From: a virus
Virus record (IMG/VR): IMGVR_UViG_3300020026_000018
DNA: 5,726 nucleotides
Strand: one strand, 5' to 3'
Shown here: one piece after another, positions 402 to 5,726 of the stretch
How positions within the stretch are numbered: position 1 is the first letter of the stretch
Layout: each line of letters opens with the position of its first letter
Translations under genes and position numbers: made by a program
Notes under the pieces: generated by a model
The model's database searches: none
The model's input: only the letters and a program-made list of their open reading frames with translations
What the model was told of the DNA's origin: nothing

Positions 402-666
402 AATGCTGAGTTCTACACAGCTCAACAAATTATACAAGGGTGTGGGGGATGGTATTGCGTCCCAGGGGGCTGTCTCGCTGTCGCTCGTGGGAACCCCTGG
501 GACGCAATACCAAGTGTGGGTGTATGTGTGGAGCGACACAAAGGCGCTCGCCGCTCGGGCTGCCTACCCGGCAGGGGCATTTCAGCGGTTTAGTTTTACA
601 AACAGGAGCGGGAGTACCCGCCCCCTACCGGGGAGGAGTAAAACAGCTAAAAAACACCCACATTAG
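391..666 (+). CDS. Doubtful ORF (91 aa) across the GC-rich island. Listed only because it is open; more likely noncoding.
   Basis: The ATG overlaps the VP4 stop. Codon choice (GCT, GTC, CTC, GCC, TCC) departs from the strong NNA preference of the confident genes. A second frame (440-682) is also open, as expected for GC-rich non-coding DNA. The ORF contains an 18-bp perfect inverted repeat. Confidence 0.2.
   Translation: MKNEMLSSTQLNKLYKGVGDGIASQGAVSLSLVGTPGTQYQVWVYVWSDTKALAARAAYPAGAFQRFSFTNRSGSTRPLPGRSKTAKKHPH
438..664 (+). other. GC-rich, highly structured intergenic element. Candidates are an ssDNA replication or packaging signal, or a structured RNA; function unknown.
   Basis: A hand count gives 125 G+C in 441-640 (62.5%) against 33 in 1-100. 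It contains an 18-bp perfect hairpin (451-468 with 494-511). A 9-bp long-range helix pairs TGTGGGTGT 515-523 with ACACCCACA 654-662 and encloses 524-653. Small GC hairpins are 560-564/570-574, 608-612/617-621 and 622-625/630-633. CGCTC motifs (482, 545, 552) and GAGCG motifs (531, 606) are repeated and complementary to each other. TACC(C)G occurs three times (565, 615, 626). Confidence 0.6.
451..511 (+). repeat. Perfect 18-bp inverted repeat forming a 61-nt hairpin with a 25-nt loop.
   Basis: GGTATTGCGTCCCAGGGG (451-468) is the exact reverse complement of CCCCTGGGACGCAATACC (494-511). The loop 469-493 contains the tandem GCTGTC..GCTGTC. Confidence 0.95.
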
Positions 667-1638: not shown

Positions 1639-3597
1639 ATGAGTACAGTAACGCTAGGAGGCGACAGACTGGGCGTAGAAGGAAAAATGACCGTTGAAAT
1701 GAACGGATTCCCAACAGCGCCAGCGAATATGCGCCAAATATGGCAAAACACGCAAAGCCCAGGTACATTACCTGTGGTGCTAACTGAAGTGTTATTGCCA
1801 GGGGATAAAGGGAGCTTGAAATTCAATGCGCGTGTAGACACGCTACCAACGTTAGGACCATTGTTTTCAAGCTTCAAACTACAGATAGATACATTTATAG
1901 CACCCTGGAGGCTGTATAATAGTCGAATGCGGGGAAACATGACGGGAGTAGGGCTAACAATGAACACAGTGAAACTGCCAACAATGACGCTAACCGCGTT
2001 ACCAACAGCAGAAGGAACGGATGACATTGACAATAGTCAGATAAACCCATCATGCCTACTTAAATACCTGGGGCTAAGTGGGGTCGGAATAGCACCAACG
2101 GAAGAAGAAGAACGAACGTTTAACGCAGTAGATTTGCTCATATATTGGGACATATATGAGCGATATTATGCGAACCAGCAGGAAAAGCGGGGCGCAGTCG
2201 TTCATTGTGGAGATGGTGTAGTTACATCAAAAACAATAACGGCAATAGTAGCGAGCAACGCAGATTCGAGCGTAAACGCGGTACTAGATGAAGCCCCGGC
2301 AATGGATGTAATGTTCGTAATATCGGCAGGCAGTACTATTGAAATTTCGTTCACAGGAATGACACCTCCAGACCTAAAACAAGTATACGTAAGACTAGTA
2401 AACGCAGGATTGGTAAGCCTGGAAGATTTATTCACAGGAGCGTACTCAAACACCTCATCAACAACAATACAGGGAGTCATAAATGTATCGAGATGGGGAA
2501 CGGATACAATAAAAAACTGGCAATACGAAACAGGGTCGACACCCAGAACGGTAAAGCCGAGAGTACAATTCTTCGACCTAACAAACATAGACGACGTACG
2601 ACACGAAGTATTGTCGTTCAATCAAACAACGCCGTATTCAATCAACAGCGCGAACCTGGCACCATACAAATACCTATTCGAGTCAGGAATGCCAGACATG
2701 CCAAATATACTATGCTCGCAAGAGGGATTGGGGATAAAGACGCACATTAGCGACATCAACAATAACTGGGTAGACACCACGTACATGTCAAACGTGGCAA
2801 GTGCGAGTGCGGTAAGTACAGTGGGAAATCAATTCACAATCGACAGCTTCTTATTAGCAGAAAAACTGTATCAGGTACTACTCCGGGTAGCGGTAAGTGG
2901 TGGGACGGTAGATGATTGGATGGATGCTACTTACGGAATGAAGCCAAGTGGAAAGATGGAAATGCCGATGTTCATTGGCGGTATGAGCGAGGAAGTACAA
3001 TTCCAAGCAAAATACTCAATGGCAGCAACAGAAGGGCAACCCCTGGCCACCTTAGCAGGAACCGGAGGTTTAGGAGGAAACCGAAAAGGGGGGTATGTTC
3101 GGATAAACGAAGTGAAGGAACCGAGTACGCTAATGGTAATAGCATCATTAACACCGAGGGTAGTATACACCCAGGGTAATAAATGGAGCTTGAACCTAAG
3201 CAGCGTAGACGATCTGTTCAAGCCAAAATTAAACGGAATCGGATTCGAGGACTTACAAACCGAAACACTGGCCTGGTGGGATGTAAAGCACAATGGTACT
3301 ACATGGGTGAAAAAGAGCGCAGGAAAACGCCCAGCATGGCAAAATTACCGGACAGCGGTACATAAAGCATTTGGAAATTTTGCAATCCCAAACAATATCA
3401 TGTACATGACGTTGGCGCGCCGGTATGAATATGATGAAACGACTGGAATCCAGGATTTGACGAGTTACGTCGATCCGAATAAATTCAACTTCATATTCGC
3501 GGAGGCGGACCTAAGCGCTATGAACTTCTGGGTACAAATCGAATGTGACTTACAATTGCAACGACAAGTAGCAGCAAGGGTAATGCCGAACCTGTAA
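1639..3597 (+). CDS. VP1: Major capsid protein (VP1 / phiX174 F-like jelly-roll capsid protein), 652 aa.
   Basis: This is the longest ORF. The N-terminal region LPVVLTEVLLPGDKGSLKFNARVDTLPTLGPLFSSFKLQIDTFIAPWRLYNSRM matches the pattern I remember from Microviridae capsids (vlPGD...F.vP.Rl.w). The C-terminal ...FWVQIECDLQLQRQVAARVMPNL is typical of the family. The size fits the larger non-phiX capsids with inserted loops. Confidence 0.95.
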   Translation: MSTVTLGGDRLGVEGKMTVEMNGFPTAPANMRQIWQNTQSPGTLPVVLTEVLLPGDKGSLKFNARVDTLPTLGPLFSSFKLQIDTFIAPWRLYNSRMRGNMTGVGLTMNTVKLPTMTLTALPTAEGTDDIDNSQINPSCLLKYLGLSGVGIAPTEEEERTFNAVDLLIYWDIYERYYANQQEKRGAVVHCGDGVVTSKTITAIVASNADSSVNAVLDEAPAMDVMFVISAGSTIEISFTGMTPPDLKQVYVRLVNAGLVSLEDLFTGAYSNTSSTTIQGVINVSRWGTDTIKNWQYETGSTPRTVKPRVQFFDLTNIDDVRHEVLSFNQTTPYSINSANLAPYKYLFESGMPDMPNILCSQEGLGIKTHISDINNNWVDTTYMSNVASASAVSTVGNQFTIDSFLLAEKLYQVLLRVAVSGGTVDDWMDATYGMKPSGKMEMPMFIGGMSEEVQFQAKYSMAATEGQPLATLAGTGGLGGNRKGGYVRINEVKEPSTLMVIASLTPRVVYTQGNKWSLNLSSVDDLFKPKLNGIGFEDLQTETLAWWDVKHNGTTWVKKSAGKRPAWQNYRTAVHKAFGNFAIPNNIMYMTLARRYEYDETTGIQDLTSYVDPNKFNFIFAEADLSAMNFWVQIECDLQLQRQVAARVMPNL

Positions 3598-3621: not shown

Positions 3622-3678
3622 GTAAGGGGTCAGCATAGTAAGGCTGTAGTGTTTGAGCACAGCCCCTTACTTTTTTTT
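3622..3678 (+). terminator. Rho-independent terminator downstream of VP1.
   Basis: GTAAGGGG (3622-3629) pairs with CCCCTTAC (3663-3670). An alternative nested stem pairs GTAAGGCTGT (3638-3647) with ACAGCC(CC)TTAC (3659-3670). T8 (3671-3678) follows immediately, and A9 then runs into the next ATG. Confidence 0.7.
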
Positions 3679-3686
3679 AAAAAAAA

Positions 3687-4022
3687 ATGAAAATCAAAAG
3701 AATGAGAAGATCAAGACCAGAGCGAACCAGTATTCGCTGTAATGACTCCTATGAAGGTGAGTCGATTGAAGAAAAAATGCGACGGGTGAGGATGCAAAAC
3801 GCACCGATCGAGGAAACCGGACAAGGAATTTGGCCGGAAGGGAATGAAGTATTACCACTTCATGATGTAAGGACGGATAGATTCGACCTAGCGTTGGACG
3901 CAGCGAATAATACCGAAAGAGCATTGACGGCACGCGGAGAATCGGCACCAGAAATGCAGAAAGAAGAGGGGAATGTTGGCACCGGAGACGGTGAACAAGC
4001 ACCATCAGATACCAACAAATAA
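3687..4022 (+). CDS. Small conserved structural or assembly protein, putatively internal-scaffold-like (VP3-like), 111 aa.
   Basis: It has a basic N-terminus (MKIKRMRRSRPERTS). The segment GESIEEKMRRVRMQNAPIEE...VLPLHDVRTDRFDLALDAA resembles the motif GE.IE.K..R....PI......VLP..(D/N)(I/V)RTDRF(D/E)(I/L)A that I remember from small proteins of gut microviruses. It sits between VP1 and VP2. The assignment is from memory and not searched. Confidence 0.55.
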   Translation: MKIKRMRRSRPERTSIRCNDSYEGESIEEKMRRVRMQNAPIEETGQGIWPEGNEVLPLHDVRTDRFDLALDAANNTERALTARGESAPEMQKEEGNVGTGDGEQAPSDTNK

Positions 4023-4089
4023 GTACAGACGCGACTTGTTCATAAAACAATCATTAACAATGACTTAAAAGGCGGTACGCGTCTGTACT
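4022..4089 (+). repeat. 12-bp perfect inverted repeat (stem A) enclosing a 44-nt AT-rich loop. The left arm begins on the last base of the upstream stop codon.
   Basis: AGTACAGACGCG (4022-4033) is the exact reverse complement of CGCGTCTGTACT (4078-4089). The TAA stop of the preceding gene is at 4020-4022. Confidence 0.9.
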
Positions 4090-4119
4090 ATATAATCAAG
4101 TACGGTGTACCGCTTTTTT
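4067..4119 (+). terminator. Terminator-like hairpin (stem B) with a T6 tail. It cannot form at the same time as stem A.
   Basis: GCGGTAC (4072-4078) pairs with GTACCGC (4107-4113). An inner helix pairs CTGTAC (4083-4088) with GTACGG (4100-4105), using one G-U pair. T6 follows at 4114-4119 and A4 precedes at 4067-4070. Bases 4078-4088 are shared with the right arm of stem A. Confidence 0.45.
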
Positions 4120-4134
4120 AGGAAAAAAGCGGAG
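4111..4134 (+). promoter_or_regulatory. 9-bp hairpin CGCTTTTTT-AGG-AAAAAAGCG (stem C) abutting a GGAG Shine-Dalgarno-like motif upstream of VP2.
   Basis: Bases 4111-4119 pair perfectly with 4123-4131 around a 3-nt loop. The hairpin uses the T6 tract of stem B. GGAG at 4131-4134 lies 8 nt before ATG 4143. Confidence 0.5.
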
Positions 4135-4142
4135 CAAAGAAA

Positions 4143-5018
4143 ATGGATCCTTTCGGAATGATAGCACAAGCAGGTGCAGACCTGGGGTTGGGGATGATAA
4201 CACGAGGCATCAACAACAGAGATCAGCTGCAGCAACAAGGAAAGCTTAACGAGCAACAGTTCGCTATCGATGGACGAGCATTGGCGAGACAGAAAGCAGC
4301 AGAGTTACAACAGTGGAGAGACACAAGCTACGGAGCGCAGCTGGATGAAATGAAAAGGAACAACCTAAGCCCAGGTATGATGTACGGAGCAGCAGGGGGG
4401 GGAGCTGGTCAACTAGGTGGAAGCACAGGAAGCGTAAACGCACCAAAAGCAGCAACGCCCGGGAATGAAGTGCTAGGAATGACGGTAGCACAAAGACAAC
4501 TGATAGAAGCGCAAACAGAAAACGTCAAAGCGGATACTGCAAAGAAAAAGGGAGTAGACACAGACCTCACGCGAGAACAAGGAAGGATGACACATATCGC
4601 GGCCAACCTAGCAGCACACACGCAACAAGAAGCGGAGCAAATAATGTGGGCACAGGCGAAAAAGCTCACGGAAGAAGCGAAAGCCGCGGGAAACATGGTA
4701 GACGCAGAGTTAAAGAAAAAGCAAGCGGACGCAATAGGGGCATTCATAATGAATGAAATAAGATGGGTGGAGAAAGACAAGACCGAAGCAGAGCTAAAAG
4801 CAATAGGCGAAACAGTAGCGCAAAAATGGAAAGCGCTAGAAATACAACAGGGGCACCTGGATATACAAAAGTTTGTGCAAGACGTAAGTAATAGCACAAA
4901 ACTAACGGTAGAGACGGTAACGAAGTTAGCCCAAATGGTGGGAGGTGGAGTAATTAAAGGGATTCCAAACAAGACGATCAAAACCCATGAATTGGGTAAG
5001 TCGACAAAAATAGAGTAA
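4143..5018 (+). CDS. VP2: DNA pilot / minor capsid protein (VP2, phiX174 H-like), 291 aa.
   Basis: The layout matches microvirus VP2/H proteins as I remember them. The N-terminus reads MDPFGMIAQAGADLGLGMITRGINNRDQLQQQ. A Gly-rich segment (GAAGGGAGQLGGSTGS) is followed by a long Ala/Gln/Glu/Lys-rich stretch that looks like coiled coil. The gene lies directly upstream of VP4, with TAA 5016-5018 and ATG 5020. Confidence 0.8.
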   Translation: MDPFGMIAQAGADLGLGMITRGINNRDQLQQQGKLNEQQFAIDGRALARQKAAELQQWRDTSYGAQLDEMKRNNLSPGMMYGAAGGGAGQLGGSTGSVNAPKAATPGNEVLGMTVAQRQLIEAQTENVKADTAKKKGVDTDLTREQGRMTHIAANLAAHTQQEAEQIMWAQAKKLTEEAKAAGNMVDAELKKKQADAIGAFIMNEIRWVEKDKTEAELKAIGETVAQKWKALEIQQGHLDIQKFVQDVSNSTKLTVETVTKLAQMVGGGVIKGIPNKTIKTHELGKSTKIE

Positions 5019-5019
5019 A

Positions 5020-5726
5020 ATGTGCCTGTACGGACGAATCATGCGGAATCCAAAGTACAGGGCAAACAAGAAAAACGGCGGGGTCGTACCGGAAATGAAA
5101 GATGTCAGAGTACAGTACGTCCCCGTTAGTTGTGGCGTTTGCTTCGAGTGCATGAAACAAAAGGCAAACGAATGGAAAATAAGACTAACGGAGGACGTAG
5201 AAGAGAACCCTGGGGGAAAGTTCGTGACACTCACATTCTCAGAGGAAGCGTTAGTAAAGCTAGGAAGCAAAATAAAAGGACTAGAGGGCTATGCCCTAGA
5301 GAACGAAATAGCAACAAGAGCAGTAAGGTTCTTTACAGAACGATGGAGGAAGAAATTCAAAAAAGCCCCTCGACATTGGCTGATCACAGAATTAGGCCAC
5401 GAGGGGACAGAAAGAATACATCTGCACGGAATAATATGGGCAGATGATGCAAAAGATATAGAGGAGCGATGGAACGCTGGAAAATATAAATACGGGTGGG
5501 TCTGGAAGGAGAAAGTGGTAAATGAAATAGCGGTAAACTACGTAAACGAGGAAACCGTAGGTTATATGATGAAATACGTAACTAAAACAGACCCAAAACA
5601 TAAAACATACAAACCGATAATACTATCAAGCAAAGGTATAGGGAAAGGGTTTGTAAAAAGATATGGATTCGAAAGAGCAAAATACCAAGGAATAGATACA
5701 AAAGATGAATATGTAACAAAGAGCGG
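5020..5726 (+). CDS. VP4: Replication initiation protein (VP4 / gpA-like HUH rolling-circle endonuclease), N-terminal portion. It stays open to the window end and continues at 3-401 through the circular junction.
   Basis: There is no stop from ATG 5020 to 5726, which is why it is absent from the ORF track. A Cys cluster CGVCFEC lies at 5131-5151. RCR motif 1 is FVTLTF (5221-5238). The HUH motif is IHLHGIIW, with HLH at 5419-5427. The two-tyrosine catalytic motif YMMKYVTK (5563-5586) follows the same YxxKYxxK pattern as phiX174 gpA (YVAKYVNK). Confidence 0.92.
   Translation, partial: MCLYGRIMRNPKYRANKKNGGVVPEMKDVRVQYVPVSCGVCFECMKQKANEWKIRLTEDVEENPGGKFVTLTFSEEALVKLGSKIKGLEGYALENEIATRAVRFFTERWRKKFKKAPRHWLITELGHEGTERIHLHGIIWADDAKDIEERWNAGKYKYGWVWKEKVVNEIAVNYVNEETVGYMMKYVTKTDPKHKTYKPIILSSKGIGKGFVKRYGFERAKYQGIDTKDEYVTKS
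5606..5726. repeat. Terminal redundancy, right copy, identical to 1-121.
   Basis: Exact 121-nt match to the window start. It lies inside the VP4 coding sequence. Confidence 0.97.

Follow-up and report, generated by a model that had tools for sequence, protein, structure and literature searches.

Single-strand origins (sso) of rolling-circle elements and the intergenic hairpins of certain microviruses are among the closest described counterparts of the element considered here, a G+C-rich island that lies immediately 3' of the rep gene in an uncultured microvirus (IMG/VR record IMGVR_UViG_3300020026_000018; the window, 5726 nt, is the whole stretch of DNA that was analysed). In ICEBs1, sso1 consists of several stem-loops just downstream of the relaxase gene nicK and is active in an orientation-specific manner; the sso of pBAA1 still works when its sequence has been altered but its structure kept; plasmid sso elements of 168–340 nt served as queries in the same study; and deletion of sso1 did not reduce ICEBs1 transfer, a second region being redundant (PMC4595007). 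Among the microviruses themselves, the reekeekee- and roodoodoo-microviruses possess predicted intergenic DNA hairpins next to rep, with conserved loops and compensatory changes in the arms, for which a minus-strand origin has been proposed but not certified, and which, like the island, are crossed by spurious open frames (Olo Ndela et al. 2022, PMC9865509). The comparisons described below show that the island is real, under selection, non-coding, structured at the DNA level and mosaic, and that it represents a new sequence family. We take it to be the main non-coding control region of this genome, reaching from the end of rep to the promoter that precedes the structural genes. The reading that we favour, and to which we give somewhat less than an even chance, is that it acts as a DNA-level signal on the packaged plus strand for complementary-strand synthesis, that is, as a single-strand or minus-strand origin.

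The window corresponds to one circular microvirus genome of 5605 nt plus a 121-nt terminal overlap, with all genes on the plus strand, on which the island features below are also given. The rep gene (VP4-like, HUH, 328 aa, PF23343) starts at 5020 and runs across the overlap to a TGA at 399–401, its 3' part occupying 1–401, and the island is housed in the largest non-coding gap of the genome, from the rep stop to the first small open reading frame (ORF). The closest GenBank entries are uncultured faecal and environmental Microviridae, with Rep identity of at most about 51%. For comparison, about 25 related genomes were gathered through exact-pattern and Rep-based scans, mostly from one JGI metagenome set and also from ENA and Logan assemblies.

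The G+C content reaches 62.5% over 441–640, essentially the value of about 62% that had been counted by hand in an earlier description made from the letters alone (hereafter the sequence-only reading), and 59.9% over 438–664, as compared to 44.7% for the genome unit. The one-third G+C surroundings reported in that reading apply to the immediate flanks (33–38%) but not to the genome as a whole. The dense base pairing that it proposed is borne out by folding with both RNA and DNA energies, on both strands, against 200 dinucleotide shuffles: region 430–690 is far more stable than its shuffles, at z of about −6 (RNA, −116.3 kcal/mol, z = −5.9; DNA, −61.2 kcal/mol, z = −6.1; minus strand as RNA, z = −6.7), and none of the 200 shuffles folded as well in any of the three tests. 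When the genome is scanned as DNA in 150-nt windows, the seven with the greatest stability are all located within 376–675. This stability is owed mainly to a perfect 19-bp hairpin (DNA, −25.2 kcal/mol, z = −7.5) and to the pair of hairpins at 608–633 (DNA, −9.7 kcal/mol, z = −3.2). Short GC hairpins, some with the predicted TACC(C) loops, were found at 560–574 (loop TACCC), 608–621 (AGTA) and 622–633 (TACC), and the CGCTC/GAGCG complementarities are present as well. What had been described as one island of 230 nt, with a 9-bp helix closing a domain in it, is instead a mosaic of at least four separable modules that evolve differently. The helix in question (515–523 with 654–662) does exist, with arms at 510–523 and 654–667 that are 86% complementary, but it is lineage-specific: since it pairs a 5' arm in module A, which sibling genomes do not have, with a 3' arm in a separate conserved inverted repeat (H5), it cannot be a conserved feature.

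The core of the island, B1 (540–599), comprises two hairpins, H1 and H2, followed by an unpaired tail that is conserved. The window lineage carries B1, and more distant versions with about 75% identity are found in L004, L006, L177, L187, L189, L200 and L217, genomes whose Rep identity ranges from about 50% to about 90%. H1 (544–556, GCGC-TCGCC-GCTC) has a 4-bp stem, in which the window lineage shows one C-T mismatch, around the invariant loop TCGCC; the stems encountered were GCGC/GCGC, GGCC/GGCC, GTCC/GGAC and AGCC/GGCT, with three of the four pairs altered on both sides. In H2 (560–574, CTGCC-TACCC-GGCAG), both partners have changed in four of the five pairs, and the sibling genome L176 shows a compensatory T-A to C-G change. 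The tail (575–599) consists of GGGCATTTCAGCGGTT followed by the 9-mer TAGTTTTAC (591–599), which is invariant in all B1-bearing genomes; the nearly invariant unpaired stretch of 22 nt reads CATTTCAGCGGTTTAGTTTTAC. Covariation was assessed on 11 B1 sequences (94 cells) in an N-padded hand alignment, which biases the pair counts toward the structure and which was used instead of a MAFFT alignment that misaligned H2. For H1 and H2 together, 91.5% of the cells are Watson-Crick paired, as compared to 65% in shuffles, and seven of nine pairs are altered on both sides; when the partner is slid by 1–3 columns, pairing falls to 30–42%. RNAalifold independently recovers H2 to H5 and prefers another fold for H1. 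These substitution patterns indicate that H1 and H2 are under structural selection.

Two further observations concern the surroundings of H2. The loop of H2 (565–569) and positions 587–590 in the tail are complementary (TTCC with GGAA in most relatives, ACC with GGT in the window lineage), so the two may form a small pseudoknot, with one compensatory event in its favour and L184 as an exception. In addition, CATGCCTCCGGCGG, which contains the hairpin GCC-TCC-GGC, is found directly after rep and followed 8–25 nt on by GGA(A/T)T in L178, L182, L184, L192, L212 and MG945485 (L204). This arrangement recurs in several subclades with about 50% Rep identity and may be the ancestral form of H2 plus tail. 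A long-range duplex between H2 and the downstream hairpin H4, which appears in the minimum free energy (MFE) DNA fold of 540–675, was dropped as a candidate: it is not conserved, H2 being different in L004 and L006.

The kind of substitution seen in H1 and H2 bears on the molecule in which they pair. A one-sided change from G-C to G-T is seen in none of the 94 cells, and no covarying pair passes through a G-T intermediate. In 18 islands, compared so as to tell a plus-strand function from double-stranded palindromes, the plus and minus strands fold equally well, with few G-T pairs in the MFE folds. Watson-Crick-only pairing of this type, free of strand asymmetry, fits pairing in DNA better than it fits a typical functional RNA. 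It thus argues, mildly, against the ribozyme or regulatory RNA considered in the sequence-only reading and against a role of the island as an RNA element at the 3' end of the rep transcript, where it might serve as a non-canonical terminator or hairpin cluster, a stabiliser, a small structured RNA or, in the case of the 19-bp hairpin, an RNase III-type processing site. Such a role would be in keeping with the location of the island, which follows the final gene in a run of genes that all point the same way and precedes a promoter box, and with the low RNA folding energy, and the covariation in H1 and H2 cannot separate RNA from single-stranded DNA (ssDNA) of the same sense. On the other hand, a terminator would need less than an H1 loop that is invariant and a 22-nt unpaired motif that is nearly so. 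A cmscan search against Rfam at permissive E-values returned only chance-level matches in the window (E = 3–9) and none at E ≤ 1 in 12 relatives, in agreement with the sequence-only reading, which had recognized no known RNA family; a tRNA/tmRNA search found none. Likewise, a search of 402–700 for plus-strand terminators (a GC hairpin followed by a T-run) detected none: H4 is followed by AGGAGTAAAAC and the 19-bp hairpin by AAGTGTGG, neither of which provides a T-run. A canonical intrinsic terminator was accordingly rejected, as the real terminators elsewhere in this genome carry T6–T8, one at 3622–3680 (GTAAGGGG/CCCCTTAC and then T8) and the other at 4064–4125 (GGCGGTAC/GTACCGC and then T6). 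On balance, we consider a function of the island in RNA unlikely.

Immediately 3' of the tail lies an exchangeable cassette (600–648), which in the window (variant i) is made up of H3 (608–621, GCGGG-AGTA-CCCGC) and H4 (622–633, CCCC-TACC-GGGG), followed by AGGAG. This cassette is 100% identical in L004 over 606–637, in L006 over 608–637 and in L184 over 619–637, genomes whose Rep proteins are only 50–55% identical. Unrelated, longer structured cassettes occupy the same place in L175, L177, L178, L187, L189, L200 and L217. The siblings L175 and L176 are about 99% identical through base 599, cannot be aligned over the next 100–150 nt and are then again about 99% identical. The left edge of the exchange coincides with the exact 3' end of TAGTTTTAC, a breakpoint that we attribute to homologous recombination inside the nearly invariant 22-nt block. 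As judged from these genomes, this lineage has a recombination hot spot in the intergenic region that follows rep.

In the alternative cassette, TAGTTTTAC is followed by the conserved blocks GGGGGGCTGAGCCC and GTAGACTGAGCGACA and a hairpin CCAC-TAGCGT-GG, whose hexamer TAGCGT we take to be the CS-6 hexamer of ssoA-type plasmid single-strand origins, a lead only. A layout resembling H3/H4 was also seen in three unrelated A+T-rich viral contigs (L003, L005 and L011), in up to four copies per contig, as a GC hairpin followed by CCCC(GCCCCC)-TACC-GGGG(GCGGGG). This link was dropped: none of the contigs encodes microvirus proteins, and Pfam searches with the three largest ORFs of these contigs gave no match.

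Upstream of the core, alignment and short-query blastn delimit module A, an accessory block of 138 nt (402–539) that is found only in the window, in L002 and in one of the two genomes within contig L001. It is absent from the siblings L176, which is the other L001 genome, and L175, where the rep stop abuts base 540. L001 itself (IMG/VR 3300020047_004644, 9348 nt) consists of two related but distinct genomes joined together, about 88–93% identical to the window, and is either an assembly chimera or a heterodimer. The main feature of module A is the 19-bp hairpin (450–468 with 494–512, with a 25-nt loop), which the sequence-only reading had described as a perfect hairpin of 18 bp; the pairing is indeed perfect (100% complementary), and the stem is one pair longer. 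Its loop contains a 14-mer, CTCGCTGTCGCTCG (474–487), that is common to L004; a scan of IMG/VR with this 14-mer yielded more than 120 matches, all of them noise except for L002 and L004. Long hairpins at the position of module A, or replacing the island elsewhere, show compensatory changes (L177 vs L217, L210 vs L179).

Modules that are present, absent or swapped between near-identical genomes, and different long hairpins at the same site after the rep stop in different lineages, are also what would be expected from selfish or neutral G+C-rich palindromic insertions and recombination debris, similar to miniature inverted-repeat transposable elements or repetitive extragenic palindromes, collecting in the only large tolerant gap of the genome. 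As a lead rather than a test, the exchanged cassette starts right after ...TTAC, the target tetranucleotide of IS608-type ssDNA transposons. However, the covariation in H1 and H2 and the 100% conservation of 30 nt of H3/H4 at about 50% Rep identity show purifying selection, no empty site between the 9-mer and H5 was seen among the relatives, and module A, read directly, has no terminal inverted repeats. Neither were copies of the island found away from the homologous position in viral, metagenome, genome (one pattern) or plasmid collections. A blastn search (word size 11) of 430–670 against 50,697 phage records, which should include relatives of phiX174 and G4, gave no match at E ≤ 1, and searches of the PLSDB plasmids gave either no matches or chance matches of 25–32 nt. 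The core motif, the only pattern scanned against 185,579 species genomes, had two chance matches there, in Scytonema and Leptolinea, with dissimilar flanks. Captured host or mobile DNA, one of the origins considered in the sequence-only reading, is not supported, no real copy of the core motif having been found in those genomes and no copy of the island in plasmids; diverged counterparts of the modules occupy the same place in related microviruses. Overall, we regard largely selfish or neutral insertion as a decidedly unlikely account of the island. Judging from the same alignments, it is contradicted for B1 and H3/H4 and possible for module A.

Both ORFs that had been reported as open across the island, 391–666 and 440–682, are indeed open, as is the frame that follows the rep stop, for about 60 codons, so either ORF or a read-through extension of Rep might be taken for a coding sequence. 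The suggestion that ORF 391–666 is a gene does not survive comparison with relatives. Its frame is broken by 1-nt indels in a genome that is 84–90% identical, the window and L002 differing by single-base indels near 449 and 649 such that the ATG-initiated frame differs across B1, and by a deletion of 140 nt in the sibling L176. Close relatives that differ by indels of 1, 2 and 140 nt have nonetheless kept their hairpins. From the 9-mer to H3, the spacing is 8 nt in the window lineage, as against 6 nt in L004 and L006; with H3/H4 being 100% identical, the same block is therefore read in different frames in different lineages. The tail nucleotides are invariant at all three codon positions, and searches of Pfam and PHROG with the frames across the island gave no match. 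Because stop codons are A+T-rich, open frames are expected in a G+C-rich stretch in any case. Hence, the comparative evidence shows the island to be non-coding, and we put the chance that it encodes protein close to nil. By extension, a long open frame that crosses a G+C-rich island in an A+T-rich phage is no ground for annotating a gene.

The 9-mer at the end of the tail raises the question of whether the island contains the plus-strand rolling-circle origin, with Rep nicking in or next to TAGTTTTAC and the 7-mer AGCGACA serving as Rep-binding iterons. TAGTTTTAC matches eight of the nine bases of the circovirus/nanovirus nonanucleotide TAGTATTAC, it is invariant in the genomes with B1, and the cassette breakpoint is at its 3' end; direct reading of the Rep sequence reveals both an HUH motif and a YxxKY motif. 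Microvirus Reps are of the two-tyrosine type. The iteron-like AGCGACA (532–538) is located just 5' of H1 in most relatives, and its copies in 13 genomes fall mostly within the first 300 nt past the rep stop, almost always in the plus orientation. It is often tandem, as in GCGACAGCCAAAGCGACAGCC in L177, L189 and L217. The hairpin loop in the window and in L004 contains AGCGACA in inverted form (window 479–485), which can pair with the direct copy; in the window, bases 479–486 are complementary to 531–538. Nevertheless, L210 and L179 lack B1 and have no TAGTTTTAC anywhere on the plus strand, and L210 has no AGCGACA near rep. As Reps that are 88–90% identical should need the same origin, this observation downgrades the plus-origin reading considerably. 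Furthermore, no conserved stem flanks the 9-mer, and the breakpoint is equally well explained by homologous recombination. The phiX174 origin lies inside gene A, which also counts against a plus origin in the island; to our knowledge, it is the only mapped origin of microvirus Reps, and it is unrelated in sequence to the motif of circular Rep-encoding ssDNA (CRESS-DNA) viruses. We accordingly view a plus-strand origin at this site as quite improbable.

On its 3' side the island is bordered by H5 (654–671), an inverted repeat A(C/T)ACCC-N6-GGGTAT with A-rich DNA after it, which is conserved in sequence and not by covariation and is probably part of the downstream promoter/operator rather than of the island proper. 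In six relatives (L178, L004, L187, L189, L200 and L217), a TAnnTTTG box, which we take to be a Bacteroides-type −7 promoter element, is found 21–23 nt past H5 (as the repeat ATACC-N-GGTAT); its counterpart in the window is TAAATTGC (695–702). This box in the relatives hints at a host among the Bacteroidota and puts a promoter 3' of the island. A dif-like XerC/D attachment site of the kind described for temperate microviruses (PMC3091885), recognizable by its match to the 28-bp bacterial dif consensus, was considered around 654–690 and rejected, the best match in the whole genome (21/28) lying outside the island and shuffled genomes having a mean best match of 20.8.

Of the functions discussed, the complementary-strand origin, which was among the ideas of the sequence-only reading, is still the best-fitting one. 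The position and orientation of the island are fixed, immediately 3' of rep and upstream of the promoter box, and these, together with the covariation and the Watson-Crick-only substitutions, agree with such a role. In the mechanism that we propose, the G+C-rich Watson-Crick hairpins would stay folded on the incoming plus strand coated with single-stranded DNA-binding protein and would present a fixed set of loops along with the nearly invariant 22-nt unpaired stretch. The host priming machinery, which might be a primase/primosome or RNA polymerase, would then start the complementary strand there; the priming step, the enzyme and the primer start are all inferred. H1, H2 and the tail would form the core, whereas module A and the H3/H4 cassette would be accessory or exchangeable enhancers. 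These enhancers would be swapped between co-circulating phages in much the same way as sso cassettes between rolling-circle plasmids.

Several observations weigh against this interpretation. The searches linked the island to no proven origin, showing no similarity to phiX174, G4 or any other GenBank phage or plasmid, and, as the plus strand is also the mRNA sense, the hairpins may instead act in RNA. The alignment of H1 and H2 was made by hand, with the structure in mind. Region 540–600 by itself folds no better than its shuffles (z = −0.7); the core is thus not exceptional energetically, and it is supported by comparison among genomes rather than by folding energy. Siblings that look viable, seen in two samples, lack module A. 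B1 is wholly missing from L210 (Rep 88% identical) and L179 (about 90%), which have a different structured island instead, and some relatives at about 45–50% Rep identity have only A+T-rich DNA at the island position. With module A missing in siblings and B1 in phages with closely related Reps, no module is indispensable, and each is lacking in some close relative. As for the structure that takes the place of the island in L210 (2008–2190) and L179 (about 3270–3450), it is a bulged rod hairpin of roughly 95 nt, with compensatory changes and with bulges at the same positions in both.

A broader proposal is that the conserved core and the freely exchangeable ssDNA-structured cassettes together constitute a complementary-strand origin, an undescribed system in microviruses with promoter boxes suggestive of Bacteroidota hosts; we offer it tentatively, as a doubtful but possible case. 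If true, this would be the first complementary-strand origin defined outside the phiX174/G4 group, and cassette swapping would represent adaptation to, or escape from, the host machinery for priming or ssDNA sensing. Minus-strand initiation in microviruses outside that group, phages that dominate gut and environmental ssDNA viromes, becomes directly testable: the candidate signals (H1/H2 with the 22-nt tail, the H3/H4 cassette and the 19-bp hairpin) are small and separable, and the natural presence/absence and cassette-swap variants resemble a deletion series.

Elsewhere in the genome, the major capsid gene (1639–3597) and the pilot protein gene (4143–5018) are both on the plus strand. Two other intergenic gaps contain the terminators described above, and the second of these gaps (4022–4132) also has a nested, perfect 12-bp inverted repeat (4022–4033 with 4078–4089); it is therefore a second structured non-coding region, and it, too, could serve replication. 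A conserved small ORF downstream of the island (706–783, 25 codons) encodes a hydrophobic, Cys-containing peptide, MKSIVIALVCALTAYCLTNNKNKSK, and ends in an ATGA overlap with the start codon (at 780) of the ORF that follows. In L175 versus L176 this ORF is about 99% conserved at the nucleotide level, and it is also found in L002 and L210; its product could be a membrane or lysis peptide. Among the Rep homologues, P0003 is 520 aa long, as opposed to about 330 aa, with 50% identity at 99% query coverage, and its extra length may represent an extension or a fusion.

Compared with the best-studied origins of this kind, the island resembles the G4 complementary-strand origin (oric), the phiX174 primosome assembly site (PAS) and the f1/M13 minus origin in that stable hairpins are grouped between genes on the packaged strand, in a fixed orientation; it is non-coding, and its hairpins include the most stable ssDNA folds of the genome. 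Unpaired, conserved DNA follows the hairpins on their 3' side, as it does in G4. In contrast to the coliphage origins, with which it shares no sequence similarity, the island belongs to phages of a different host (probably Bacteroidota), and is modular, with presence/absence of modules and exchange of cassettes between sibling genomes.

The types of sso behave as exchangeable cassettes. The island is similar to sso elements in its size (about 260 nt, within their range), in having several stem-loops and in its position after the gene of an HUH nickase/relaxase. It differs from ssoA, in which CS-6 is located in a terminal loop and is accompanied by an RSB element, in that 402–700 contains no CS-6 TAGCGT and the island shows no similarity to plasmids, and from sso elements in general in that no promoter mimic of Bacteroidota format (TTTG...TAnnTTTG inside a hairpin) is evident. 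With the CRESS-DNA origin (the TAGTATTAC/TAATATTAC stem-loop) the island has in common the 8/9 match of TAGTTTTAC, an adjoining HUH Rep gene, short repeats and a breakpoint; here, however, the motif is not in a conserved stem-loop and is absent at 88–90% Rep identity. The nearest likeness among microviruses is to the hairpins of the reekeekee- and roodoodoo-microviruses, from which the island differs in clade and sequences, in its larger size (about 260 nt, with 5–6 hairpins) and in its mosaic structure, and beyond which it possesses a nearly invariant 22-nt unpaired motif and an ultraconserved two-hairpin cassette.

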